A stretch of 64,000 nucleotides of DNA, taken from assembly GCA_000004985.1 (NCBI GenBank), contig GG738845.1; one strand, 5' to 3'. The stretch is from Naegleria gruberi (Eukaryota). The notes under the pieces are model-generated. The model was not told the origin of the DNA and ran no database searches. It was given only the letters and a program-made list of their open reading frames with translations. This document shows positions 21,020 through 64,000 of this stretch, one piece after another. Both the position numbers and the translations under genes were made by a program. Each line of letters opens with the position of its first letter. The first letter of the stretch is position 1.

Positions 21020-22063
21020 ATGGTGAGCAAGAGCAAACAATCCAACAAGGAAATTGTCGTTGAGGATGAACACTTCATCCCAGTCGAACCATCCGAACCA
21101 ATCCTCCCTCTCAACGAACTCGGTTCAAGATTGGGCAAGGCAGACAATGAAAAGTGGACAGGCTGCAAAGTTGTAGCAGACAAGGAAACTGGTGAGAAGG
21201 TTCTACTCGTCAGAGGTATTAAAAACAAGGAGAAGGATCGTAGTAAGAGAATGGTCAAGAAGGGTGGTGAATTTGATCCTGAAAATATTGTCTCAGGCAC
21301 CAGAAGAAGAAAGAATATTAATTATAAGGAAAATACCGAAAGAAAGGAAAGCAGAAAGACTAGCAGCAAGAATACCCATGAAAATAGATCAAAGGCTGTT
21401 GCAAAGACTTCAAAGAAAAAGTCAACCTCCAAGAAGAGAAAGGCAAAGGAAGAAGAACATTCCGAAGAAGAAGAAGAACACGATAAGGAAAATATTGAAA
21501 ATCAACAAGAAGAAGATGAAGAAATTGTTCAAGCTCCAAAGAGAACTAGAAAGAATAGAAAGAATGTATCTGTCAAGAAGGAAGAACCTAAGGAAGAAGA
21601 GCCAAAGGAACCTGAATGGACACTTCCACTCTCTCCTGTCGTTTGTCAATTGATTCAAAAACTTGGTGGTGAATTGCCAACTGAAGCTAAGAAGCGTTGT
21701 TATAAGGGTATTAGACTCTCAGAACCAGTTAATTATTGGTGTGCTGTCAAGTGGCCTGAAGATACTCTTTATGTTATGGATCCTGCCAAGACTAATGGTG
21801 AAACTGTTGGTCTCTTTAAACATGAATTGTTTGAATTGACTGAAATTGAACAAATACAATATGTTCAAGACAATCCAAATGCTGTCATGCTTGCTGATGG
21901 TGAAGGTCTCCTTACTTGTTTACCAGATGAATCTAATGATCCTGATTTTAATGTTCATATCATTCTTGAAGCTACTGAAGGTGCTGATGAATGTGTTTTC
22001 CGTATGAAACTCTCTGAATACCTTGCTTCGTTGTCTGTTGATCCAAGAAAGGTGGAAAATTAA
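21020..22063 (+). CDS. Hypothetical Lys/Glu-rich (likely nuclear) protein, 347 aa, single exon
   Basis: It is a long ORF with an ATG start. It has a basic KKRK stretch and a conserved-looking C-terminal globular region (WTLPLSPVVCQLIQKLGG...). Confidence 0.55.
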   Translation: MVSKSKQSNKEIVVEDEHFIPVEPSEPILPLNELGSRLGKADNEKWTGCKVVADKETGEKVLLVRGIKNKEKDRSKRMVKKGGEFDPENIVSGTRRRKNINYKENTERKESRKTSSKNTHENRSKAVAKTSKKKSTSKKRKAKEEEHSEEEEEHDKENIENQQEEDEEIVQAPKRTRKNRKNVSVKKEEPKEEEPKEPEWTLPLSPVVCQLIQKLGGELPTEAKKRCYKGIRLSEPVNYWCAVKWPEDTLYVMDPAKTNGETVGLFKHELFELTEIEQIQYVQDNPNAVMLADGEGLLTCLPDESNDPDFNVHIILEATEGADECVFRMKLSEYLASLSVDPRKVEN

Positions 22064-45394: not shown

Positions 45395-48046
45395 ATGAAG
45401 AAAACAAGTCCAGCATCAAGTAATTCAAAAGTGCAAAGCAAACTCTCCTTCAAAAAGCCGACCCCAACTTCCTCTACGGAAGAAAAGAAAATTCCAACAC
45501 CCAATGATAAGAATAATGTAATAGTTTTAGAGGATGATGAATTTGATGATATTGATTTTAGTGACGTTATTAGTGATAAATCTCCACCACCACCACCAAT
45601 GAGTTCATCACAACAAGGAGGTTCATCCCAAACATTTATCATACCAAAGAATCACTCGGTGAAACCTGCTCTTAAATTATCACAACCTTCGGGATCCCGA
45701 AGTAATAATAATACTTTAAAATCATCAGAAGCCTCTTCTTTAACAATAGAATCCTTCAATATTGACAGTGATGAAGATATTGAAAAATCAATGCACTTGA
45801 CTTTGAAAAAGTATTTTAAATTGGAAGAATTTCGTCCAAATCAATTTGAAATTATTTTCAATCTTGTTAAAAACAAACAAGATACACTTGTCATATTACC
45901 TACTGGTGGTGGTAAAAGTTTATGTTATCAATTACCTTCATTAATTTTACCTGGTGTTACTCTTGTTGTTTCTCCATTGATTTCTTTAATGCACAATCAA
46001 GTACAAGCACTTGATCATTTATCAATTCCTTCAAATTATTGGAATTCAAGTCAGAAAAAGTCAGAAATTCAAAAAATTCAATCAGATTTAGAATCTGGAA
46101 ATCCAAATTACAAACTTTTATATGTAACACCTGAATTATTAACAAGTAATCAAACATTTCAATCTATAATGAGATTATTAGCGAGTAGAGATCAATTATC
46201 TTTAATAGCTATCGATGAATCACATTGTATTTCATCATGGTAAGTAGTAATAGTTGTGTTTAAATAATTTCAAACTCTTTTAGGGGACATGATTTTAGAA
46301 AATCATTCAGACAATTGAATTTCCTCAAAGATACATTTCCTCAAGTTCCAATTATTGCCTTAACTGCAACTGCAACTGAAAAAGTAAGATCAGATATTGT
46401 TGAAAGTCTGAAAATGAGAAATCCTAAATGCTTTATTACCTCATTCAACAGACCTAATATTTCATATGAAATTAGATATAAGGATATATTACATAATCCA
46501 TATGAAGATTTACGTAATTTTTTAAATGAACATGCCCAAGAATGTGGTATTATTTATTGTAGAACTAGAAATCAAGTCGATGAACTTGTATTACAATTAT
46601 CAATGGAAAAGGATAAAGGTGGTAAAGACTTGTTCTCATGTAAATCATATCATGCTGGATTGAAATTGAGCGAAAGAAAAACAGTTCAAACTGATTGGTT
46701 AGAAGGAAAAACTAAAATAATTGTTGGTACAATTGCTTATGGTATGGGTATTGATAAGAAGGATGTTAGATTTGTTGTAGTAAGTTTTTGTGAATTTTTC
46801 ATTATCTTGAGTTTAGAACCTCTCACATTTTATTACCCAACTGCTTCTTTTTTTACATTTTAGCACTATGGTATGCCAAAATCATTAGAAGGATTTTATC
46901 AAGAGTCAGGAAGAGCTGGTAGAGATGGTAAAAAAGCTAAAAGTTTGCTCTATTATTGTAGTAGAGAAAAGAATTCAATTCAATTCTTAATTTCTAGAGA
47001 AGAAAAATTAACTCAGGATCGTATTCTTGCTGTTGAACAGGTAAGTAACTTCATATGATTGGGAGTTCATTCTACTTCTTTAGGGGTTTAATAAGGTTTG
47101 TGAAATGTGTGAAACTGCTTGTTGTAGAAGAAAATTTGTATTGGAATTCTTTGGTGAAAGTTATGATCCGGCAAAACCTCATGGAATCACAACTGTCACA
47201 TCACCTATTAAATCTAAACAACAACAACAACCAAAACAATCCAATGTTAAGGCAACACTTAAATTATCAAAACCAAATACAACATTAGCACCATCAACAC
47301 CACCTAAAAAGACATCTAATCAACCATCTAAAAGTGGTGTTATTGAAATAATTCCACAAATTAAGGGTGTTGAATATGTAGAAACTTGTTGTGATTATTG
47401 TGCAAACCCAAAGAAGAAGGCTGAGGAAATTAATAATGCATCATTTACTTATAATCCAAGAAGTGGAGGTGGTAGTGGTGGTGGTGGATTAGGCACCAAA
47501 ATGGCAGATGAATTTATTGCTTCTGCAAGTGAATTCGACGATGCTATTGAAGAATTTCACGATGATGATTATGATGAATTTGATGGATTAGATATGGAAG
47601 AAGCAAGAAGATCAGAAGAACGTGATCAAAACTCATTCATTAATAGATATAGGAAACAAATGGGAATAACTGATAATTCAATGATAACTCGATCAAGTCA
47701 TACACTCACAAAAACAAAACCAACTCCACAACAAGTGGAATTGAAACGAAAAAGAATGGAAGATAGTATTGATAATGTTTTAGATGCATTAGAAAAAGAA
47801 GAAAAGAAACAAAAGAGATCTTACAGTAAGAGTAAGAGTTCACTATTACCTTCCAAATCAAGTAGTTCCAACAATTTTGATTTGTCAAATAGTGGCGCTA
47901 GTGGTAGTGGTGGTGGTGGATTTGTTAAAGCAAGTACACTCCTTCCCACAACATCATCATATCGATCATCAGAGATGAGTAATCGATCCAAGACAACAAC
48001 AAATAGACCAAAGAGCAATTTGGAACGATTCATGTCAAAGAAGTAA
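45395..48046 (+). CDS. RecQ-family ATP-dependent DNA helicase, 4 exons: join(45395..46239,46284..46779,46864..47040,47084..48046), about 826 aa
   Basis: Helicase motifs are present: [17 protein letters not shown] (I), DESHCISSW|GHDFR (II, split by intron 1 in phase 2), [41 protein letters not shown]|[22 protein letters not shown] (VI), and the RQC zinc motif [20 protein letters not shown]. All donors are GTAAGT and the acceptors are YAG. Confidence 0.85.
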
Positions 48047-49072: not shown

Positions 49073-50203
49073 ATGATTTTACAAAAACAAGCTGATTGTA
49101 TTCACTTCTCTGGTGCAATTACAAGAGTTGCCTATTTTCAAAAGAAACTCAGAGAATATGTTAGCCAAGAACGGTTACAACATATTAAGAAAGAGCTCAC
49201 TCCCTACTTGAAAGATGAATTTTTAAACAAGCCAATTCCACATTGTCAATTTTTATGTGAAACCACTGGTGAGAGTGCTCTATTATCAGGAGCTGAAGAA
49301 ATGTTAAATTCATCCCTTGAAAATGAATCAACAACAATAACATCACCTGTAGTAGTACCAATTATTTTCAGAGAGGCCAATGAATTGAACACTTTACCTG
49401 TTAGTTATTTAGAACAATTTGTTCCTGCCATGTTATATGAAGATGAATCAAAAGGTAAAAAGATTGAGAAAAAGATTGTACTGAGAGAATCATTACTTGA
49501 TATGTATATCAAACAGGATACTGAAATATTTCTAATCAAATTCAGTCCTTTAATTGATACTAAAAAGATTACATCCATTAATTTTAATAATTTCACACAA
49601 GTTGGAATTATTGAATTTCTACGATTTACTAATTTAATTATTTGTTTTGATCATACTAAAATTCAAACATCAGTATTAGAATTTTTCATTAAATTAGAAT
49701 TGGAAGAAGAACATTTAATTGTTAAAATTTACTATACAAAGAACAATTCCTTCTATAAGAGTGAAATTAGAATTGAAAAGAAGGGAAGAACTGAAAGAAT
49801 TTCAATTAATGACTCTGCAGAACTCATATTTAAAACAAGAGAAGATGAATCAAGAACTTGGTACGGTGTATATTATGATACATTGAGTATTATCTCAGCA
49901 TCTTCAAGTGTTTCAATTTCCAAGGAGATTATTGCACAACATGTTGGAAAACAAGTTGCCAAAGCATTGAAACCGGACAAGAAATTATTAACCATTCCAA
50001 GTACTCATCCAAAAGATGAGGAATTTGTGAAAAAACAATTGGCTAAATGTGCAGTTTGTAGAGAGACAACATATTACAAGACTAGATTTCCTATTTCATA
50101 CAAGACACTTCCAAATTATAGGTCCTTATTTGATGATAGTTCAATTAATATTGGTCTTTGTTGTCCAAAATGTTACAATCGTTACAGAGAACTAAAGAAA
50201 TGA
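49073..50203 (+). CDS. Hypothetical protein (376 aa) with C-terminal Cys-rich zinc-finger-like motif (CAVC...CCPKC)
   Basis: It is a long ORF with an ATG start. A possible short upstream exon lies at 48887 (MSSLSAVRG...), but that is not resolved. Confidence 0.5.
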   Translation: MILQKQADCIHFSGAITRVAYFQKKLREYVSQERLQHIKKELTPYLKDEFLNKPIPHCQFLCETTGESALLSGAEEMLNSSLENESTTITSPVVVPIIFREANELNTLPVSYLEQFVPAMLYEDESKGKKIEKKIVLRESLLDMYIKQDTEIFLIKFSPLIDTKKITSINFNNFTQVGIIEFLRFTNLIICFDHTKIQTSVLEFFIKLELEEEHLIVKIYYTKNNSFYKSEIRIEKKGRTERISINDSAELIFKTREDESRTWYGVYYDTLSIISASSSVSISKEIIAQHVGKQVAKALKPDKKLLTIPSTHPKDEEFVKKQLAKCAVCRETTYYKTRFPISYKTLPNYRSLFDDSSINIGLCCPKCYNRYRELKK

Positions 50204-50617
50204 ACAAAGCTTTTAAAAACTTTTGGCTTGAAAAATAGGTTCATTATAAATACCATTTTAAAGATAGCTACTTAATAAGAACCTAATATTATACTATTTA
50301 TTAAATTAAATTGATGATGATTGTGCAGTGTTGAATTTTCATGTTTTAGGATTTATCATTGGATGAAATAATTAATAACGATCATTCCCACATGAAAAAT
50401 CAAGCTAAAAAACACTAAATATGGCTACCGATATCGAGATATGTGATATCGAGATGAAAGCACCTCATTACATCCTTCAAGTTGAATCAATGTGATGCAA
50501 AATGTCAAACCTTTCAAGTTTGTTCAATTAATGATGTTTCATTCTAAACAATTCTTAAACCATTCAATCCAAATTCATCAACAGATGGTTCTAATAGTGA
50601 TGCACTTGAAAACAATT

Positions 50618-50746
50618 AACAACAATAGAATCCTTCAATATTGATAGTGATGAAAATATTGAAAAATCAATGCACTTGAAAAAGTATTTTAATTTGGACG
50701 AATTTCGTCCAAATCACTTTGAAATTAATTTTCATTAAAATTAAAA
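50618..50746 (+). pseudogene. Duplicated fragment of RecQ exon 1 (about 90% identical to 45738..45870, with a 6-bp deletion)
   Basis: aacaatagaatccttcaatattgatagtgatgaaaatattgaaaaatcaatgcacttgaaaaagtattttaatttggacgaatttcgtccaaatcactttgaaatt matches aacaatagaatccttcaatattgacagtgatgaagatattgaaaaatcaatgcacttgactttgaaaaagtattttaaattggaagaatttcgtccaaatcaatttgaaatt in RecQ. Confidence 0.6.
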
Positions 50747-50780
50747 TTTATCATCATTGTGCTAATAACGTTTTTTAAAA

Positions 50781-53423
50781 ATGCGTTCATTTCATCATCA
50801 GCCTACTCGACTACTCAACAATAGTAGTGATGATCAACAACTCGAAAAACATCAGCAACAGCAACAACATAGTTGGGGACCACTGCTTCAACCTCCAATA
50901 ACAAATAGTAACAATCGGAGATTATCAGGTAATATTCATTATCAACAACTGCAACAACAACAGCATCCACCACAATATAATCATCCTCACCAACATCAAC
51001 AACAACAAATAACTTCATCACCTTTATATTCTAGTCATGATAATATACTTTCTAATTTTTCATCACAAAATTCAGCCTTTAAACTTGTACCTAAAGTTGA
51101 TCATCATCAACAACAACAAGAAGATTTCCCAAATAATTCATCTTTTAGTAAAATAATATTAATACCACCCGATAAACAAAGACCTTTTAATTTATTACAC
51201 ATGACAACATTGGGATTAAAAAGTACATTTTCATCTATTAAATATAAAACTAATTTATCACAAGTTATTGATTTGAATAAATCATCTTCATCTTTAAAAG
51301 TATCATCATCAACAACATCAGTATCAGCATCATTATCAACTAGTAGTAGTATGAGTAGTAGTATGAGTAATAGTAGAAATAATGAAATAATATTGAATGG
51401 TATAAATAGTGATGAATTTCCATTAAATTATTTTACAGATAATGATAATGAAGGATCAATAATACTTCCACAACATAAACATGTTAGAAAGTGGCCACTT
51501 TTATTTAGAAGATTTAAATTTATTTCCTTATTAGGACAAGGTCGATTTTCCAAAGTTGTACTATGTGAAGATTTATTTCAATCCAATAGAAGGGTTGCAA
51601 TTAAAATTATGAATCAAAAATCAAATGAAATTGGAATACAAGAGTCATTACATTATTTTTCTATAAAATTCTAAAATTCTAATAATATAAATGGAAATAA
51701 TTCTAATAATAATTCTAATATATTACAATTATATTTAACTTTTTATTTTTGTGGACATTTTTGTCTAGTATTTGAAGAATTAGGAGAAACATTATTAAAT
51801 TACATACAAAGATATCAACCATATACAATTAAAATGGAAATATTAAAGAAAATAACATTACAATTAATAATAGGATTATTAATATTAAAACAAAATAATA
51901 TAATTCATACAGATTTAAAACCTGAAAATATTTTAATGAAAAAATTAAATTCATCAAAATTAAAAATTGCTGATTTTGGAAATGCAATTAATTATTTAGA
52001 TAAATATCATTTAAATTTAAATATAGGAAGACAATTACAAACTTTATTTTATAGATCACCTGAAGTTATATTTGGAAATTCAATAATTGATTTTCAAATG
52101 GATATGTGGTCAATTGGATGTATAATTGTTGAATGTTTTATTGGTAATCCTTTATTTAATGCAAATAATTTAAATCAATTAATTAATCAAATGTTAAATT
52201 TACTTGGTCCTTTACCTTTAAATTTATTTAAAAATAATAATTTAAATAATAATTTAAATACAACTAATTTAAATAATAGTAGTAATAATATAAATAATAT
52301 AAATAATATAAATAATAATATTTATGAAAATAGTAACAAATCAAGTTATTCATTTAGTAAGAAACATTTAAAATTAAGTAAATTAATGAGATTAAGATCA
52401 AATGATTATCAATTTGTATCATTTATTACTTCTATATTAGAATATGATCCTAAAAAAAGATTAACACCTGAAAAGGCATTATTTCATCCTTTTTTAAATT
52501 CTGTATTTCCATTTTCATTAAATATGATTTACAATATTAATAATAATTTACATAATAATAATAATTTAAATAATTCTATTGATTCTCAAGCTATTATTAT
52601 TAACAATAATAGACAAGAAGAAGAAGAGCAACAACAATTAATTTATGATAATAGTTTAATAGCATCTCATAATAATAATAGTAATATTGGCAATGTTGGC
52701 AATGTTGGTAATAATCATGTGAATATTACAATGGCATCATTAGCTCCAAAACATTCATTATCATATCAACAACAACAACAACAACAATCAATAACGACGA
52801 CGAATCAAACACAACTGCAGCAGCAGCAACAACAACAACCCTATCATACAATGTTCTCTTCTTCAACAAGTTCAAGTGATTTGAGTTCTCCAACTCATAA
52901 CAAACAACAACAACAACAATATATTTCACCTCATCAACAAGGACACTATGTAAATATGCCATCACCATCATCCTATCAACCATCCTCTAAGAAAATTAAA
53001 TTATCACATCGAGAATATTCTAAACCTCAAATATCTCAATCATCATCTCATCTAAATCACCAACATAATCAAATTATCAATCAAGTAACAACAACACCAC
53101 CACCACAACCACAATTACCACAAATATATAACTCCTCCTCCTCATCTAATCAACAACAACCTAGTTCATCATCTAGTACACAATTATTTATTCCTCCTCC
53201 ATCTCCATCTACTACTGTAATAACAACAGGTACAACACATGTTGTTTCTCAATCAACACCAATTATCATTCCACAACCACCTAAGAAAGTACTTCCTCTA
53301 GCTCCACCTAAAAGACATGCATGTGAAAAATGTGGAAGTCAATTTATTGAACTTTCTCATTCACCTAATAATTATACCATCAGATGTAAACATTGTAGAC
53401 ATATATTTATTAAGAATAAATAG
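50781..53423 (+). CDS. DYRK-like (CMGC) protein kinase with long N/Q/S-rich N- and C-terminal regions, whose reading frame is interrupted by one in-frame TAA at 51672..51674
   Basis: Kinase motifs are present: LGQGRFSKVVLCED...RVAIKIM (subdomains I-II), HFCLVFEELGETLLNYI, IIHTDLKPENILM, KIADFGNA, and RQLQTLFYRSPEVIFG (the DYRK-type activation loop). The two listed ORFs are in the same frame and are separated only by the TAA. The intervening sequence has no GT or GC donor, so I could not construct a canonical intron. Confidence 0.6.
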
Positions 53424-53976
53424 TCTGTAATTTTTCTTAAAAAGTTTTAAATCTGGAACCAGGAAAAGCTTGATTCGTTTAATACGGCACACTTCTAACA
53501 GTATTTCAATACAATGACAATACCCTACAGACAGGCACTCCGGATTGACCCATGCATTTAATTAGCCAAACTTCAAGGCAGTGTTGTGGTAGTTGACTCA
53601 ATTACGCCTGAAAACCTTTTCTCAAGAATTTCCACCAGTGTCGTTGTATTGTCTTTCATGGGTAAAATTTTCCATAATATAGTCTCAATATTTAACCTTA
53701 ATTATTATTTTAAATAACAATTCTCCTTTAAATATAACTAATACCCACATTGTCAAAGAAATTTAATTCACATCAACGTCAAAATCAATGACAAGTAGAG
53801 TTTTGTTGTGATGCAAGTTTTAATTCTCTCAAACTAGAAATAGATGTATTATGAATCTCAAGACTTTTAATATTAGAATGATAAATCTCTTTCAAAGTAG
53901 AGGCACAAAATTTGTACTAATGTTATTTCGTATTCGAAACATGGATTTGAAACGTTCTCGAATAAGTAAACTCAAT

Positions 53977-54327
53977 TTAAATCCTAACTAGAGGATCTGT
54001 ATTCGGTAGTTGTTCGAATTTATCAATTTTTCTGGTATACAGTTGACCTGAACGAACAAAACAATACACTCTTACAAAAACTTCTGTATTGATAAGACCA
54101 GTGTCTTCTATATCCCACAACTTTCTAATTGCTGTTGCTTGCTTTTTTCTTATTCCTAATGATTGTAATGCTAGTTTGAATTCATTACTATTCAACAGAC
54201 CATCAGTATCTTTATCAAACTTTACAAGTAAATCTTGTGCTTGTTCTTTCAGTTGGTTAATGTTATTAAATGCATCTCTTGAGGCAATGATTCCATCTGG
54301 AACCCACAATGGGAGCTTTTCATACAT
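53977..54327 (-). CDS. Small EF-hand calcium-binding protein (116 aa)
   Basis: It has the canonical loop DKDTDGLLNSNEF (DxDxDG...E) flanked by helices, and a second degenerate EF-hand downstream. Confidence 0.55.
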   Translation of the reverse strand: MYEKLPLWVPDGIIASRDAFNNINQLKEQAQDLLVKFDKDTDGLLNSNEFKLALQSLGIRKKQATAIRKLWDIEDTGLINTEVFVRVYCFVRSGQLYTRKIDKFEQLPNTDPLVRI

Positions 54328-54574
54328 TTTTTTTAATGTGTAAAGTATTCATTAGTCAGTTGTTAAATATATTTTAGGAGAAAGGTCAAAATTACACATT
54401 TCCTTTTTGGTAAAGATTTAAGTATTTGAGATTGTTATCTATTTTTTTTTAGAAGGAAGGGTCAGTTCAACGAGTTATTTTGATAAATTGAATTTGAAGT
54501 ATAAAAATATTGAGGAAGAAAAGGATTGAATGTAATTCTGTATTATTATTTCAAATTAAGTTAGATGATTGAAA

Positions 54575-56187
54575 TTATTCATCATCATCATCCTCTTCCT
54601 CTTGTTCTTCAATTTCATCCTCTTCTACTTCCTCTGCTTCATCATCCATAAAATCTTCCTCATTAGGTAATGATTTAGTAATATCATAATTTGAAATATC
54701 ATCTTCTTGATTGGATTTTCTTATAACAATAAAATCTTCAAGTGATTCATGTTGATTGAAAATATCATCATCTTCATCTAACATGGTTTCTTTTGGACTT
54801 TCAGCTGCCAAACTTTCCTCAAATACTTGTTCAATTGGATCATTATCATCCTCCATTAAGACAATTGGTTTTTTCTTCTTTTTGGATGATTCAGTTTTAT
54901 CTTTCTTTTTCTTCTTTTTCTTTTCAGTTTCTTCCTCTTCTTCATTTTCATCTGATTTCTTTTTCTTCTTCTTTTTCTTTTTCTTTTCTTCACCATCATC
55001 ATCATCTTGGTCATCTTGATCTGATTTTTTCTTTTTCTTCTTTTTCTTCTTCTTTGGTTCTTCCTCTTCTTCATTATCTTCATTTTCCTCTGATTTCTTC
55101 TTCTTTTTCTTTTTCTTTTCAGATTTTTTCTTTTTCTTTTTAGGTTCATCCTCTTCCTCATTATCATCATGTTGTACTTCCTCTTCATTTTCATCATTCT
55201 CATCATTCTCATCATCTCCAGGTGTTCTCTTTCTCTTTTTCTTATCTGATGATGATGAATCAATTAATTGTGAATAAAAATGTTGAGATGAAGCCTCCTT
55301 TCCAGTAACATCTCTATCAGTAATAACAGAAATGGTAATTGCATTTTCAACACCATTTTGTTTTAAAATGACTTTGGTTTTTAAATTACAAGATTCCAAA
55401 TCCTTTTTAATTTTTGGAATAATTTTAGCTAAACTCTTATTTAAAGATAATTTTCTATCAATACAAATAGTTTGAACTTGTCTATTAGCTCTATTTAAAT
55501 TTGTAAATATTTTTATAACAATTTCCTTATTAATTTTTAAATATTTTCCTAAAAATCTAATTAATTTTAAAAAATTATTTAATAATAATTTAGAACCCAT
55601 TAAAGTTGCTTGTAATAATTGTGGTGTTGATTTTACACTTTTAGTAAGTGATGTTAAAAGTTTATAAAAATTTATAACTTGAAGAATTCGTTTTAAATTT
55701 TTTGTTACTTGATTTTCTTTCCATTCCAATAATTCTTGATTTGATATTTTATTTGATAATTCAATAAATATCTTTTTTATACATATTGGTATGGTTATTT
55801 TAGTTATATTTGGAAAATTAAAATCTAAATGTTGTTTAGGTTCATTGCTTTCATTATTTTCATCATTTAATTTCTCTTTTAAACATTCAATTAATTCACT
55901 TGTTCCTGTAATCCAACTTCCAAATGAAATTAAACCAGAAATTAAATTACCAAGTGATTCACTTTTAATAATACTTGGAAATGGTGTTTGTAATAAATGT
56001 TTAGATATTCCTTGTAAATCAATTTTTAATTTTGTTATATCACTTTTAATTACAATAGATTTTAATAATTCAAATAATTTATAACAAATATCAAATGTAT
56101 TTAATTCTAATATTAATTCTTTAATAGAATTATAAAATATTTCAATTAATTCTTCTGAATCTTTATCTGCTAAATCATTATCATCCA

Positions 56188-56218
<31 letters not shown>

Positions 56219-59200
56219 ATTTGATAATAATAATAAATTAATAATTCTATTAAATTCATCTTTAAAATGATCAAATATTTTCAATATAATATCAATTAAT
56301 AATTGAAAACAAGGTGTAATATATTCATTATTTAATTCATTATCATCAGATTCATCCTCAATTGATTGTTTAATTGAATCTTTTGATATAATTTTAATAT
56401 ATTTATATAAATATGGTAATATATTAAATAACATTTCATAAAAATCATTGGTATTAATTCTATTTAAATTATAATGATTTTCCTTTTCTTTACTTGTAAA
56501 GAATGTTGTTTTACTTCTAGCAATAACTGATTTTAATTTACTTTGTAAATCTTCAATAATATAAAATAATTGTACAGGTTGTAATGAAGAATTATTATTA
56601 TCAGTATTATTATCATCGTTATTATCATCGTTATTACTTGTTGTTGCATTATTATTATATTTAATAATATTAATAACAGATAAATCTAATTCTCTGTAAT
56701 GAATTTTTAAATTTGATAAATATTTTCTCTTAGATGGTAAACTAATATATTCACTTGATGATTTTGAACTAGTAGTAGTAGTTTCATTTTCTTGTTCATC
56801 TTCATCTTGTTCTTCATCATTATCATCTTGATCATCTTCATCTGATTTCTTCTTCTTTTTCTTTTTACTATCTGTATTAGTTGTTGTTGCCATTGTTGTT
56901 GTTGTTGTAGTGGTAGTATTTGCAATTATAGTAGTATTAGTACCTATAGTAGGTAAATGAAATGTTAAATTCATTGATAAACATTTATCAAGTGTTTTTT
57001 CTAATAAATTTATATTTTCAATTCTTTCCAATATATATTTAATATTATTATTATTATTCATAACATTATTTTGTTCATTATTTTCATTTTCATATTTTCA
57101 TCATTTTCATCTTGTGCTCCAACATTAAAAGTAAAACCATTTAAAATTTCTCTAAACCAATTAATAGTAAAAAATAAACCTGTACAAATTAAATCCTTTT
57201 CCTTTCTATTGTAATGTTTAAAATTTAATAAAATATCATCCAAATCAAATAATACAACTCCTGATTGTAATAAAAAATTAGAATAATCACTTTTTAATTT
57301 ATCCATTACAATTTTCATTAATCTAAATTGTGAAAATAAATTCCAAATACTTTCATCTTCCTTCTCTAATAGAGGTAATATATTTACCAGTTGTTGTGAA
57401 TTTTCAATTGAAAATTGAATTTTATAATCAAAATAATTTGATTTTAGTTTTTTTAAATCAGATTTTTCAATAATAAATCTTTGAAAAAAATCATGAATTA
57501 ATCTTGTTTGAATTTCTTGTAATAATCTTTCATCTAAATTTCTTTCTTTTATAATAAAACATAATTCATCATATAATAATGTTTTAAATATTGGAATTTT
57601 ATAACAACATTTTAATGAAAAATCTAATAATTCAATACATTGTTCATATTCTTCATTATTTAAATTTTGTTGATTATAATTATTTAATAAATTATTTGTC
57701 TTGTTATTATTACTATTATTACTAATATTACTTGTATTTAAATTATTTAAATTATTAAATTGATTAAAATTACTACCAATAATAGATAAAATAGTACATG
57801 AACCAATAATACCCATTTTTTTAAAATTAAAATTAGTATTACTTAATTGTTTTCTAATAATGATCATTAATTCATCTCTTGTTCTTGTATTATTATTATT
57901 TGAATGATTCAATGTTTTTGTAAATGATAGAATTGAAAATAATTTATAAACTTTTCTCAATTGTTGATCTGTTAAATTTGTTAAAGAATCAATTAAAACT
58001 TGAAAAAAACTTGAATAATTTCTTAAAATTGATAATTTTGTATATGAAATTGATAATAAAACATCGAGTGATGAATCTTTTTCAATTTTAGAATTACTTC
58101 CAACATGTGTTATTAGTGATTGAATTATTTTTTGTCTATTATAATCATTTTTAACATTTTCAATTATTTTACGATGTCTAATACCAGTTGATATGGCACT
58201 CACTAGAAGTGATTCACATTGTAGTGATGATGATGATGAGGATGATGAATTATTACTATCTATAAATTGTTTACCTTTCCTTTTTTGTTGTTGTGTTGAA
58301 TAGAATTCTTCATCTTGTTCATCAATCATTGTTGTTGTTTTACCTTTACCTTTAAAAGTACTATTATTACCACTTAATATTAATGAAGTATTGTTATCAT
58401 TCTCATTATCATCATCATTGTCATGTAAATCATTTTCATCATTTTCATTATTTCCACCAAGTGATGAAATATCCAAATCCTTTCTAATACCCTGTACAAC
58501 AGATTTAATATTATCATCATTTGTTGATTGTAATAAAAATCTGATAATGACAGGTAAATCAGATAGAGAAGCAGAATTTAAATTTCTTAAAACTCTATCA
58601 ATAGTTTCATTTAAAATTTCCTTTTTTAAATTTAAATTTGATAAGGCATCAATGACACATGTTGTCATTTCAGATTTATCTTGCATTACTTGATCTAATT
58701 TTTCAACAATATTATCATGTTCTGAATCATCAATAATTTCAGGTATTGCTGATATTAATTCTTTTGTAAATTCAATAGATGATATTTGTAATAGTGTATT
58801 TAAATGTTCTGTTAACTTTTTAGAATCTACAATCAAATCTAACCAACGCATTTGTGATATTATTAATTTTGGTATATTTTTATCCCATTGTTCATATAAT
58901 TCCTCTTCATAATCTTGACATTTATTTAATAATTCTTCAAATAATATTTCAATTATATTCATTTGTATTGTTGATATATTTAATAGTAATTTAAAAAATG
59001 ATTCATTAGATGAAAAATATGTTCCACTTCCTTCATTTGTACTATATTTTTAAATAATTAATTAATTATTATTATTATTAATAATGTTAATTTAAATTTA
59101 AATAGTAGTATTAAATGACAATTGACAAGATGATCAAATTATTATTATTATTTTTACAATAAAACAATAACATGATAATAACAAACCTTTCTAATGGAAC

Positions 59201-59557
59201 AAGACAAAGACAGAAAAAGTATTCATCTTCGATCATTGATTTTAAAGCAAAACAAAAGTTTTCAATATCTGTTTTTGTTCTTCTTGCAACTTCCTTTTCA
59301 ATATGTCTTCTTAATAACATGGCATCTTTAACTTGAAATGAAGAAATTGAACTAAAACTTGATTTCTTTTTTGATCCGATAGTAATTTTACCAAATTGTA
59401 TTTCATTAAATGGTGGAAGATTTAATCCACCATCACATAACAATCCATAAAACTTTTTAATATGTTGAGAAATTGATGCATTATTACCACTTCCTGATGC
59501 AGAAGAAGATGAACCACTACTACCACTGCTTGTGGATGAGGCTTTTTGTGGAGGCAT
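54575..59557 (-). CDS. fancd2: FANCD2 orthologue: exon 1 59187..59557, a 145-nt intron, exon 2 from 59041 downward. The frame shifts in an (AAT)n tract at about 57058-57075 and the ORF then continues to 54575
   Basis: NIPKLIISQMRWLDLIVDSKKLTEHL...DLPVIIRFLLQS aligns with human FANCD2 [26 protein letters not shown]...DLPVIIKFILHS. Other matched blocks are MIIIRKQLSNTNFNFKKMGIIGS with [34 protein letters not shown] with NWFREIVNAF, and exon 1 ENFCFALKSMIEDEYFFCLCLVP with [23 protein letters not shown]. The intron has GTTTGT donor and ATATAG acceptor in phase 2. The conserved IKYILERIENINLLEKTL (human LKHIVELQIILEKYL) lies in a different frame from the upstream MKMKIMNKI. Confidence 0.8.
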
Positions 59558-59818
59558 TTTTTTAGGCTTTGGATTTCCAGTTTTCACTGGAGCAGAAAAA
59601 AAAGGCTTGATGATTGGATGGAGGTATTTTCTTGAGTTTACTCGAAAACGACATTTATAGAAGAATAGAAGGAAAAGGTAAAATCCAATAAACAAGTTTG
59701 TCACATAGTTATAAAATTATCAAAGTTGTTAGGTCTACTTCATCACCAATTCTCTCCTTTCTGCAATATTGAAAAACTATTTTGAAAATAAATTTATAAA
59801 AATAAATTCTTCAAAAAA

Positions 59819-62145: not shown

Positions 62146-64000
62146 TTAATTACATTCAATTTTCATATCAATAATTTTAAATGATTTTTGACCTTCAAAT
62201 GGACAAAAAGTACAAATTAATTCTTTACATTTAACACCTTCATCTTTTGTAAATAAATTTAAATATTGTATTGATTCTGAATCTTCTAAAATACCTTCAC
62301 CTATTTTCATTCTATTAGATTTATTATTAAAATTATTAGAAGATTGATTATTTAATAATATAATAGATGTATTATTAGGTATAATTGGTATAAAACATGA
62401 ATAATATTGTGGTCCTCTTCTATTACCAGGTGTTTTAATTCTAATTCTTTTAATATTTACTTTTTTATCAAATGTAAATATAACATTACTACCTTCAGCT
62501 TTACATTGAACTTTAAAATCTGAAACACTTGAAGTTTTTAGAAATTTTTCAGTATGTGAATTATTAGTATTATGTGAATTATTGGAATTAGTATTATGTG
62601 AATTATGAGTAGTATTATTTGATTGAGTATTAGATTGTTGATTCATCATGATTGGTTGAATATTTTCAATTTCTTTATCTGTTATTGTTGGTACATTTCT
62701 TAGTGGTGATGAATTTGTTACTACTACTTGTTGTGATTTTATATTATTATTATTATTTGATTGAATAGGTAAATTATTATTTTGATTATTATTGTTTAAT
62801 GAAATAATTTCAATATTATTATTATTATTAACTTGTTGTTGTTGTCTATTAGGTGATATATGTTTTAAATAATGATTATTTTGATTATTATTTAAAATAT
62901 TATTTTTTTTAATTCTTTTTATAGCAGTATTTGTCATTTTAATTTGTGATAGAGGTGAATGTTCTTGATTAATTAAAGGTTTTGTTTTAATTTCATAACA
63001 ATTTGATGGAAATTGTAATTTTGGAAATGCAATTAATTTAATACATTTAATATTTTTAGGTAATAAAACACTTCTACTATAAGTAAATGTTGAATTATTA
63101 TTATTATCCAAAGTAGGAATACTTCCATCTATAGTATATCTATAAATAATATCTGATTGTAAATGTTCAATTTTAAATGTATTATCATTTGAATCATATT
63201 TTATAAATTGTTGAATATTTATAAATGAAGGAATTGTAAATGAACTTGTTTTACTTTTTAATTTTCCATTTTCAACTGAAAATATATTTAGTAATTGATA
63301 ATTTTCTTTAATTGGAATTTGATTATTTTTATAAATTATAAAATCATCATTATCAAAATTAATATAATATAATGTATCTTTTTTAAAATTTGAAATTATA
63401 AATAATTTACTAAATATATCAAAATAACCTTCAACAATTTCACTTTCATTTGGATAATTAAATGTTAAATAATTTATAAATTTACATCTTTCAATTCCAA
63501 TAAAATGAATTATATTTAAATTTAAATTAATATATTTTTCATATTTATAAATTTTATATTTTTTTATATTTTCTATAAATGGAATATTTAAATCAAATGA
63601 ATAAAAATAATCAATTCCTTCAATTTCATCATTAATAAATACATTTTTATCTAATTGATGAAATGATACATCTGGTTGTGGTATTGTTAATATATTTTTA
63701 AAATAATCATCCATTTGAATTTCCATTTTAGGTAATTTATTTAAATGATTTAAAACATCATTAAAATGATCATTAAATCTATTACTATTAATAGAATCAA
63801 TTTCAATATATTTAGTACATTGATAATATTGTGCTATTGATATAATTTCATCAAAATCAATTGAATTTGAATTTCTATTTTCACTATTATATCCAATTAA
63901 TAATATATTTGGTAAATATCTATTTTTAGATGTATATTTTGTAATTTCAGGTAAAATTTCATTTAAAATATAATTAAATGATTCTCTATTTGTAATATTA
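62146..64000 (-). CDS. Partial CDS. The frame is open from the window edge (64000) down to the stop at 62146, and the N-terminus lies outside the window. It may contain a chitobiase/hexosaminidase-C-like (CHB_HEX_C) Ig-like domain
   Basis: The minus-strand frame has no stop between 64000 and 63726 (NITNRESFNYILNEILPEITKYTSKNRYLPNILLIGYNSEN...KLPKMEIQMDD...), and the tool's M at 63726 is internal. The motif IIYRYTIDGSIPTLDNNNNSTFTYSRSVLLP resembles the RYT.DGS.PT motif of CHB_HEX_C domains. Confidence 0.45.
   Translation of the reverse strand, partial: NITNRESFNYILNEILPEITKYTSKNRYLPNILLIGYNSENRNSNSIDFDEIISIAQYYQCTKYIEIDSINSNRFNDHFNDVLNHLNKLPKMEIQMDDYFKNILTIPQPDVSFHQLDKNVFINDEIEGIDYFYSFDLNIPFIENIKKYKIYKYEKYINLNLNIIHFIGIERCKFINYLTFNYPNESEIVEGYFDIFSKLFIISNFKKDTLYYINFDNDDFIIYKNNQIPIKENYQLLNIFSVENGKLKSKTSSFTIPSFINIQQFIKYDSNDNTFKIEHLQSDIIYRYTIDGSIPTLDNNNNSTFTYSRSVLLPKNIKCIKLIAFPKLQFPSNCYEIKTKPLINQEHSPLSQIKMTNTAIKRIKKNNILNNNQNNHYLKHISPNRQQQQVNNNNNIEIISLNNNNQNNNLPIQSNNNNNIKSQQVVVTNSSPLRNVPTITDKEIENIQPIMMNQQSNTQSNNTTHNSHNTNSNNSHNTNNSHTEKFLKTSSVSDFKVQCKAEGSNVIFTFDKKVNIKRIRIKTPGNRRGPQYYSCFIPIIPNNTSIILLNNQSSNNFNNKSNRMKIGEGILEDSESIQYLNLFTKDEGVKCKELICTFCPFEGQKSFKIIDMKIECN

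Follow-up and report, generated by a model that had tools for sequence, protein, structure and literature searches.

What should we make of a protein kinase gene that reads as intact apart from one stop codon inside its catalytic domain? The question is raised by a 64,000-nucleotide stretch of DNA (the window, by which we mean the whole stretch that was analysed), which is part of a 1.56-Mb Naegleria gruberi NEG-M scaffold and in which the kinase locus is surrounded by eukaryotic housekeeping genes, namely RFC, a RecQ-like helicase, Rictor, FancD2 and RPC4. Our answer is that the stop is truly there in the sequence and yet is nothing out of the ordinary: a kinase gene that is unannotated and otherwise functional-looking carries a one-base defect, and there is no evidence for an unusual expression mechanism at this locus.

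The frame from 50781 to 53423 translates as 881 codons with one internal stop, a TAA at 51672-51674 (codon 298). An initial annotation of this DNA had described two ORFs, 50781..51674 and 51834..53423, lying in the same frame with this TAA as the only interruption, and that is indeed the case: all three coordinates (50781, 51672 and 51834) are 0 mod 3, and the peptide quoted there for the region around the stop matches the translation exactly. At a GC content of 24-28%, the 297 + 582 codons of the kinase frame contain 0 further stops, whereas the remaining five frames hold 18-51 across the upstream part and 41-89 across the downstream part, so the openness of the kinase frame is far beyond chance. 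It is also the sole site in the window, on either strand, where a lone stop stands between two open stretches of 120 codons or more. The features of the locus are these:

50781..51671, plus strand: upstream 297 codons, comprising a Gln/Ser-rich N-terminus, the pre-kinase motif FPLNYFTDNDNEGSIILPQHKHVRKWPLLFRRF and the N-lobe as far as αC
51513..52496, plus strand: whole protein-kinase domain, residues ~245-572
51603-51605 and 51642-51644, plus strand: the VAIK lysine K275 and the αC glutamate E288, which with GQGRFSKV make up the N-lobe motifs
51664..51682, plus strand: perfect tandem repeat TAAAATTC, 2.4 copies with period 8 and 100% match, the TAA opening the second copy
51672..51674, plus strand: in-frame TAA, codon 298, at the C-terminal end of helix αC
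51675..51719, plus strand: N. gruberi-specific Asn/Ser-rich insert NSNNINGNNSNNNSN in the αC-β4 loop
51696-51720, plus strand: perfect repeat AATAATTCTAAT (12-nt), 2.1 copies, within the Asn/Ser-rich insert
51675..53423, plus strand: downstream 582 open codons, with subdomains IV-XI, a Gln/Asn/Ser/Pro-rich tail and a terminal TAG at 53421-53423
51912-51914, plus strand: D378 of HTDLKPEN, the first of the C-lobe motifs, the others being DFG (D398), SPE, DMWSIG and YDPKKR
52226-52321, plus strand: Asn-rich CMGC-insert repeat, made of 9-30-nt AAT-rich arrays, near-perfect or perfect
53322..53420, plus strand: C-terminal CxxC...CxxC zinc ribbon CEKCGSQFIELSHSPNNYTIRCKHCRHIFIKNK (Zn_ribbon_5 E = 0.0018, weak, below Pfam's cut-off)

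Where in the fold does the stop fall? Alignments to the solved structures of PRP4K, CLK and DYRK run unbroken across the TAA, in keeping with the earlier description of a continuous kinase, and they place it ~10 residues past the αC Glu, at the end of helix αC and before β4. It follows E288 (subdomain III) and precedes HFCLVFE (subdomains IV/V), and the boundary had therefore been put correctly between subdomains II-III and IV-XI. The insert region at 51675..51719 is 30 nt longer in N. gruberi than in its orthologues, and the repeats at 51696-51720 and 52226-52321, which encode Asn-rich inserts inside the kinase domain, are absent from every orthologue.

As to what kind of protein this is, the motifs that we required for a eukaryotic protein kinase (GxGxxG, the VAIK Lys, the αC Glu, HxDLKPEN, DFG, (A/S)PE, DxWSxG and the subdomain XI Arg) are all present and invariant in a 7-sequence alignment read across the stop, and the downstream part alone matches Pkinase (PF00069) at E = 1.4e-36 over profile positions 55-263. 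Judged by sequence likeness, the locus encodes, in one exon, a CLK/DYRK/PRP4-like kinase of the CMGC group that is specific to vahlkampfiids and ends in a zinc ribbon. The label DYRK-like, which it was initially given, holds as far as CMGC is concerned, with scores about equal against CLK, DYRK and PRP4K, but the kinase has neither the DYRK YxY nor the CLK LAMMER signature. The family profile finds CLK2 at E = 2.5e-60, the kinase domain aligning end to end, and DYRK1B at 3.7e-58 (~1e-58 for DYRK1A/1B); for PRP4K the single-sequence E is 6.5e-38, with profile scores near those for CLK2 and DYRK. The pre-kinase motif is CLK-like, its D-x-EG-x-(I/L) pairing with DDAEGHLI in CLK2. As a possible counterpart of the DH box that precedes the kinase domain in DYRKs there is the conserved acidic motif NYFTDNDNEGS, but the DYRK1A/1B alignments begin only at profile position 130-131, with the kinase domain, and the motif is matched by CLK2 instead. 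Where CLKs have EHLAMMERILG, in contrast, N. gruberi has NQLINQMLNLLGP and the family profile reads eLidqmvslLGp. The activation-loop YxY of the DYRKs, whose second Tyr is autophosphorylated, is likewise missing, N. gruberi having GRQLQTLFYRSPE there and reading NIGRQLQTLFYRSPE in the YxY comparison; at the position equivalent to DYRK1A Y321 all family members have Gln, preceded by R/Y/H. Unlike CLK, DYRK and PRP4K, this kinase bears a CxxC...CxxC zinc ribbon and long Asn/Gln-rich inserts. A collection of 5.8 billion sequences, including the NCBI and EukProt N. gruberi sets, holds no N. gruberi protein for the gene and no kinase domain more than 54% identical to it. Exact look-ups of both ORFs gave no match, a sequence search gave no Logan or ENA contig of the N. 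gruberi locus, and a metagenome scan for a closer relative or a second N. gruberi sequence returned only kinases at 25-27% identity.

Do its relatives carry the stop? Apart from a few environmental contigs, close relatives came only from Naegleria and Willaertia, and they provide four orthologues:

N. lovaniensis: C9374_008574 (P0075)
Related Naegleria, Logan-assembled: P0076
Willaertia magna: ABK040_009545 (P0077)
JGI metagenome: P0001, 54% identical

Every one of the four is an uninterrupted single-exon ORF. The codon aligned with the TAA, which the initial annotation had proposed to inspect in related species, is sense in all of them (TAT for Tyr, CTC for Leu, CTA for Leu and AAG for Lys, in loci L001-L004), and the stop is therefore specific to the N. 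gruberi assembly. All four share the pre-kinase motif and the kinase domain, and the zinc ribbon is kept in the N. lovaniensis, Logan and metagenome orthologues and in part in Willaertia. The metagenome (L001), N. lovaniensis (L002) and Logan (L003) loci have upstream neighbours in common, a cellulase and a malate/lactate dehydrogenase, which the N. gruberi locus lacks, so that the gene sits in a different neighbourhood there. Since tblastn with the genes that lie beside the orthologues (MDH, cellulase, EMP70, NUDIX and others) finds no match in the N. gruberi window, orthology is drawn from sequence and domain architecture alone.

Is the stop then a real mutation? We lean tentatively, at just short of an even chance, towards a real and very young nonsense allele, a null, in the NEG-M reference. 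Its most likely origin would be a one-base change of a Leu, Tyr, Lys or Gln codon (TTA, TAT, AAA or CAA) to TAA, made within a slippage-prone quasi-repeat that would thereby have become the perfect 8-bp tandem repeat TAAAATTC-TAAAATTC-TAA. A product ending at codon 298 would consist only of β1-αC of the N-lobe and would have no catalytic loop, which is why the allele would be null; the laboratory strain may be heterozygous for it or have it fixed, and in either state it would be a nascent pseudogene. We infer that the base is real rather than miscalled, and the repeat context speaks more for a repeat-templated mutation, by which a quasi-repeat became perfect, than for a miscall at random: the TAA is contained in a perfect tandem repeat of 19 nt, and 0 of 500 other stop-creating point changes would do likewise, or 0.8-3.6% would fall in a comparable repeat under looser definitions, this being a statistic defined post hoc, after the data were seen. 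Naegleria is described as a mainly heterozygous diploid (PMC9928731), and null alleles would be sheltered as a result. We also considered an 8-bp duplication as the sole lesion and rejected it, as deleting one copy leaves the TAA in frame and shifts the downstream frame.

The strongest rival, in our estimate almost as likely and likewise somewhat short of an even chance, is that an error of base calling or of the consensus entered the Sanger whole-genome assembly, such that NEG-M would have a sense codon here and an ordinary functional kinase gene that annotation missed. All but one base of the locus looks like a gene under selection, there is no published N. gruberi model for the kinase domain, and next door the insertion of just one G after 57094 (minus strand) would make FancD2 a single ORF. 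As the sequence stands, that gene (54575-58962, minus strand) consists of two overlapping ORFs in different frames, with the break in the region 57058-57100. The added G completes a third copy of the 9-nt repeat GATGAAAAT and gives one continuous ORF (...GAQDENDENDENENNEQNNVMNNNNNIKYILERIENIN...), a FancD2 fragment from N. fowleri can be aligned to either side of the break, and we find neither a consensus intron at the break nor an N. gruberi protein model over the junction. There are accordingly two single-base defects in ~25 kb of very AT-rich coding DNA, of a kind that we infer to be typically under-covered in clone libraries, and the two lesions, 5.4 kb apart, fit locally error-prone AT-rich DNA (13-25% GC) at least as well as two independent real mutations. 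Set against an error are the rarity with which a random stop-making miscall would complete a perfect 19-nt repeat too (0-3.6% of alternatives), the ~15-fold lower frequency of stop-creating substitution errors compared with indel errors, and the fact that the window contains no Ns or other gap signs.

How much can be read into the missing gene model? Four ORFs of the window match N. gruberi proteins exactly:

21020-22060 (21 kb): EFC50596
44222-45289 (44 kb): EFC50598
49073-50200 (49 kb): EFC50600
59819-61006 (59.8 kb): EFC50602

This numbering leaves one model per interval, and the intervals 22000-44000 and 50200-59800 contain a 3084-aa ORF, Rictor (1688 aa), the kinase and FancD2. The AT-rich genes of the window appear to be under-annotated in the N. 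gruberi reference proteome generally, which makes the absence of a kinase model uninformative on pseudogene status. Base composition changes along the window, with GC3 at ~0.24-0.32 for genes at 3.8-22 kb, at 0.17-0.21 for those at 24-50 kb and at 0.02-0.11 for the kinase, FancD2 and ORF 62146-63726, the last with GC3 0.02 and 16% Asn; the long ORFs are nevertheless intact. This AT pressure is isochore-like and regional, and it pushes residues towards F/Y/M/I/N/K.

Could a real TAA simply be read through? On this proposal, programmed or leaky near-cognate decoding would yield enough full-length kinase to keep the downstream frame intact, and we judge it very improbable. Equally improbable, in our estimate, is the more specific version in which the TAA is real and fixed and is decoded within the tolerant αC-β4 loop, by near-cognate readthrough of UAA-A, often enough that the kinase stays under selection; this would be a lineage-specific readthrough site of recent origin inside a catalytic domain. 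It is true that the 582 downstream codons are open and conserved, that every catalytic motif and the zinc ribbon are kept, and that the stop lies in a tolerant loop beside a lineage-specific insert. However, programmed readthrough would be expected to show itself in a stop conserved among orthologues, and this one is missing from 4/4, or in a leaky context or stimulatory RNA structure, and here UAA followed by A is the commonest genuine terminator context in the window (7 of its 12 TAA stops) and the least leaky stop context in eukaryotes. The sequence around the stop, UAA-AAU-UCU, has no known readthrough motif (CARYYA, CUAG) after the stop, the 141 nt beyond it have no better a fold than shuffled sequence (z = 0.31), and there is no other in-frame stop in the 64 kb. 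No suppressor tRNA was found, a tRNA scan of the window having given no tRNA at all, and searches of the literature on Naegleria yielded no report of readthrough except at selenoprotein UGA, and nothing relevant on in-frame stops, on the kinome or DYRK, or on re-sequencing. Readthrough or recoding at this TAA thus appears to have no support.

An old, decaying pseudogene, in which the open downstream frame would be a coincidence, is hardly credible. The idea draws on an excess of change downstream: N. gruberi-specific changes are ~4-fold enriched there relative to upstream when scaled to Willaertia (6 in N. gruberi vs 15 in Willaertia upstream, 34 vs 19 downstream), affecting 34/242 columns in the C-lobe vs 6/140 in the N-lobe and upstream. 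It draws also on the Asn-rich inserts and on the extremely low GC3, GC1/GC2/GC3 in the kinase being 0.32/0.31/0.08. One might see older relaxation in the greater C-lobe change, but its replacements are conservative. Indeed, at columns where the four orthologues do not vary, N. gruberi has 33 replacements of its own with a mean BLOSUM62 of +0.85, where random single-base replacements are expected to average -0.45 to -0.55, and 18 of the 33 are to F/Y/M/I/N/K (AT-driven). The codon-position asymmetry is strong, and the low GC3 is regional, being common to FancD2 and ORF 62146-63726, with the annotated RPC4 at 0.17. There are 0 further stops or frameshifts, though 8-11% of random non-synonymous changes would be stops, and none of the 334 single-base paths to a stop downstream has been taken, which limits neutral divergence since inactivation to < ~2.7% (95%). 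From the lack of any new stop, the conservative, AT-driven replacements, the codon-position GC and the regional AT bias it follows that the downstream part was under purifying selection until very recently. The lesion itself is evolutionarily instantaneous, since 582 codons have gone without a further stop, the motifs and the zinc ribbon are kept and the replacements are conservative. With one lesion only and the coding signatures kept, the kinase pseudogene that the initial annotation had entertained survives in a nascent sense only, and long-term decay is ruled out.

Least credible of all is that the TAA is removed at the RNA level, whether with a non-canonical intron, by editing or through translational bypass; nothing speaks for this except the stop itself and the existence of one in-phase GT(51644)...AG(51811) pair. 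The local intron consensus, GTAAGT...YTTTAG over about 44-84 nt, comes from three introns of the RecQ-like gene in the window:

46240-46283: intron of ~44 nt, GTAAGT donor and YTTTAG acceptor
46780-46863: intron of 84 nt, GTAAGT donor and YTTTAG acceptor
47041-47085: intron of 45 nt, GTAAGT donor and YTTTAG acceptor

In the kinase gene GTAAG occurs only once, at 52357. Each of the 32 in-phase GT/GC-AG pairs over the stop would delete VAIK, αC or HFCLVFE, and the orthologues have no intron, their coding sequence running on through the region. There is no GT or GC between 51645 and 51750, as had been noted at the outset, and no GT, GC or AG between the conserved anchors on either side of the stop. 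The accompanying statement that the GT at 51644 is in the wrong phase at every AG was mistaken, because with the AG at 51810-51811 it bounds a 168-nt in-phase interval; that interval has no intron consensus and would take out the conserved β4-β5/hinge. A spliceosomal intron therefore finds no consensus donor near the stop and no dispensable in-phase interval, and the non-canonical intron that had been put forward falls as well. As for editing, no U-to-C or A-to-I editing of nuclear mRNA is known from Heterolobosea, and as for bypass, a hop between the repeated TTC codons would move the frame onto a TAA at 51680. Frameshifting by +1 or hopping at TTC-TAA-A is irrelevant, given that the productive downstream frame is the zero frame. 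We also considered a compensating double frameshift and rejected it. Read in the +2 frame, 51662-51679 gives YKILKF, resembling the YKMQQL of the orthologues, and MAFFT sets 5-nt and 25-nt gaps around 51662-51679, but the identity, 13/18, hardly exceeds the 10-12/18 of the next-best offsets, Willaertia lends no support and the +2 frame meets TAA TAA at 51680; we take the resemblance for low-complexity noise. Among the four candidates in the initial annotation, then, a sequencing error and a recent nonsense mutation survive, the intron is rejected and readthrough is left without anything in its favour.

Why should any of this matter? Beyond curation it is of little importance: the N. gruberi reference proteome is without this kinase, which should be entered there with its premature stop or, should the base prove to be an error, as an intact gene. 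The kinase and the FancD2 frameshift jointly mark out a part of the scaffold that is very AT-rich and under-annotated, where gene-presence calls made from the published annotation, such as kinome size or the completeness of the Fanconi pathway, may be unreliable. If the stop is real, the locus would be a small example of repeat-templated mutation making a null allele in strongly AT-biased DNA.

How does this compare with what is known? Stop-codon reassignment or ambiguity occurs in ciliates, Blastocrithidia and Condylostoma, and the likeness is a TAA within a coding frame, but here there is one instance in 64 kb, and TAA terminates 12 of the 17 long ORFs of the window, which indicates the standard genetic code. 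The classical readthrough genes, such as TMV replicase (UAG-CAR-YYA), Drosophila kelch and headcase, and the mammalian UGA-CUAG genes, share with our locus an in-frame stop followed by a long conserved extension; in contrast, the stop here is UAA-A, is unconserved and is accompanied by no motif or structure, and it splits a catalytic domain where theirs adds a C-terminal extension. The closest counterparts of our finding are nonsense alleles or nascent unitary pseudogenes and, equally, single-base consensus errors, which resemble it in having one stop in an intact conserved ORF, orthologue sense codons one to three base changes away and no special sequence context. From that class it differs in nothing substantive, the one oddity being the perfect 8-bp tandem repeat that the TAA completes.
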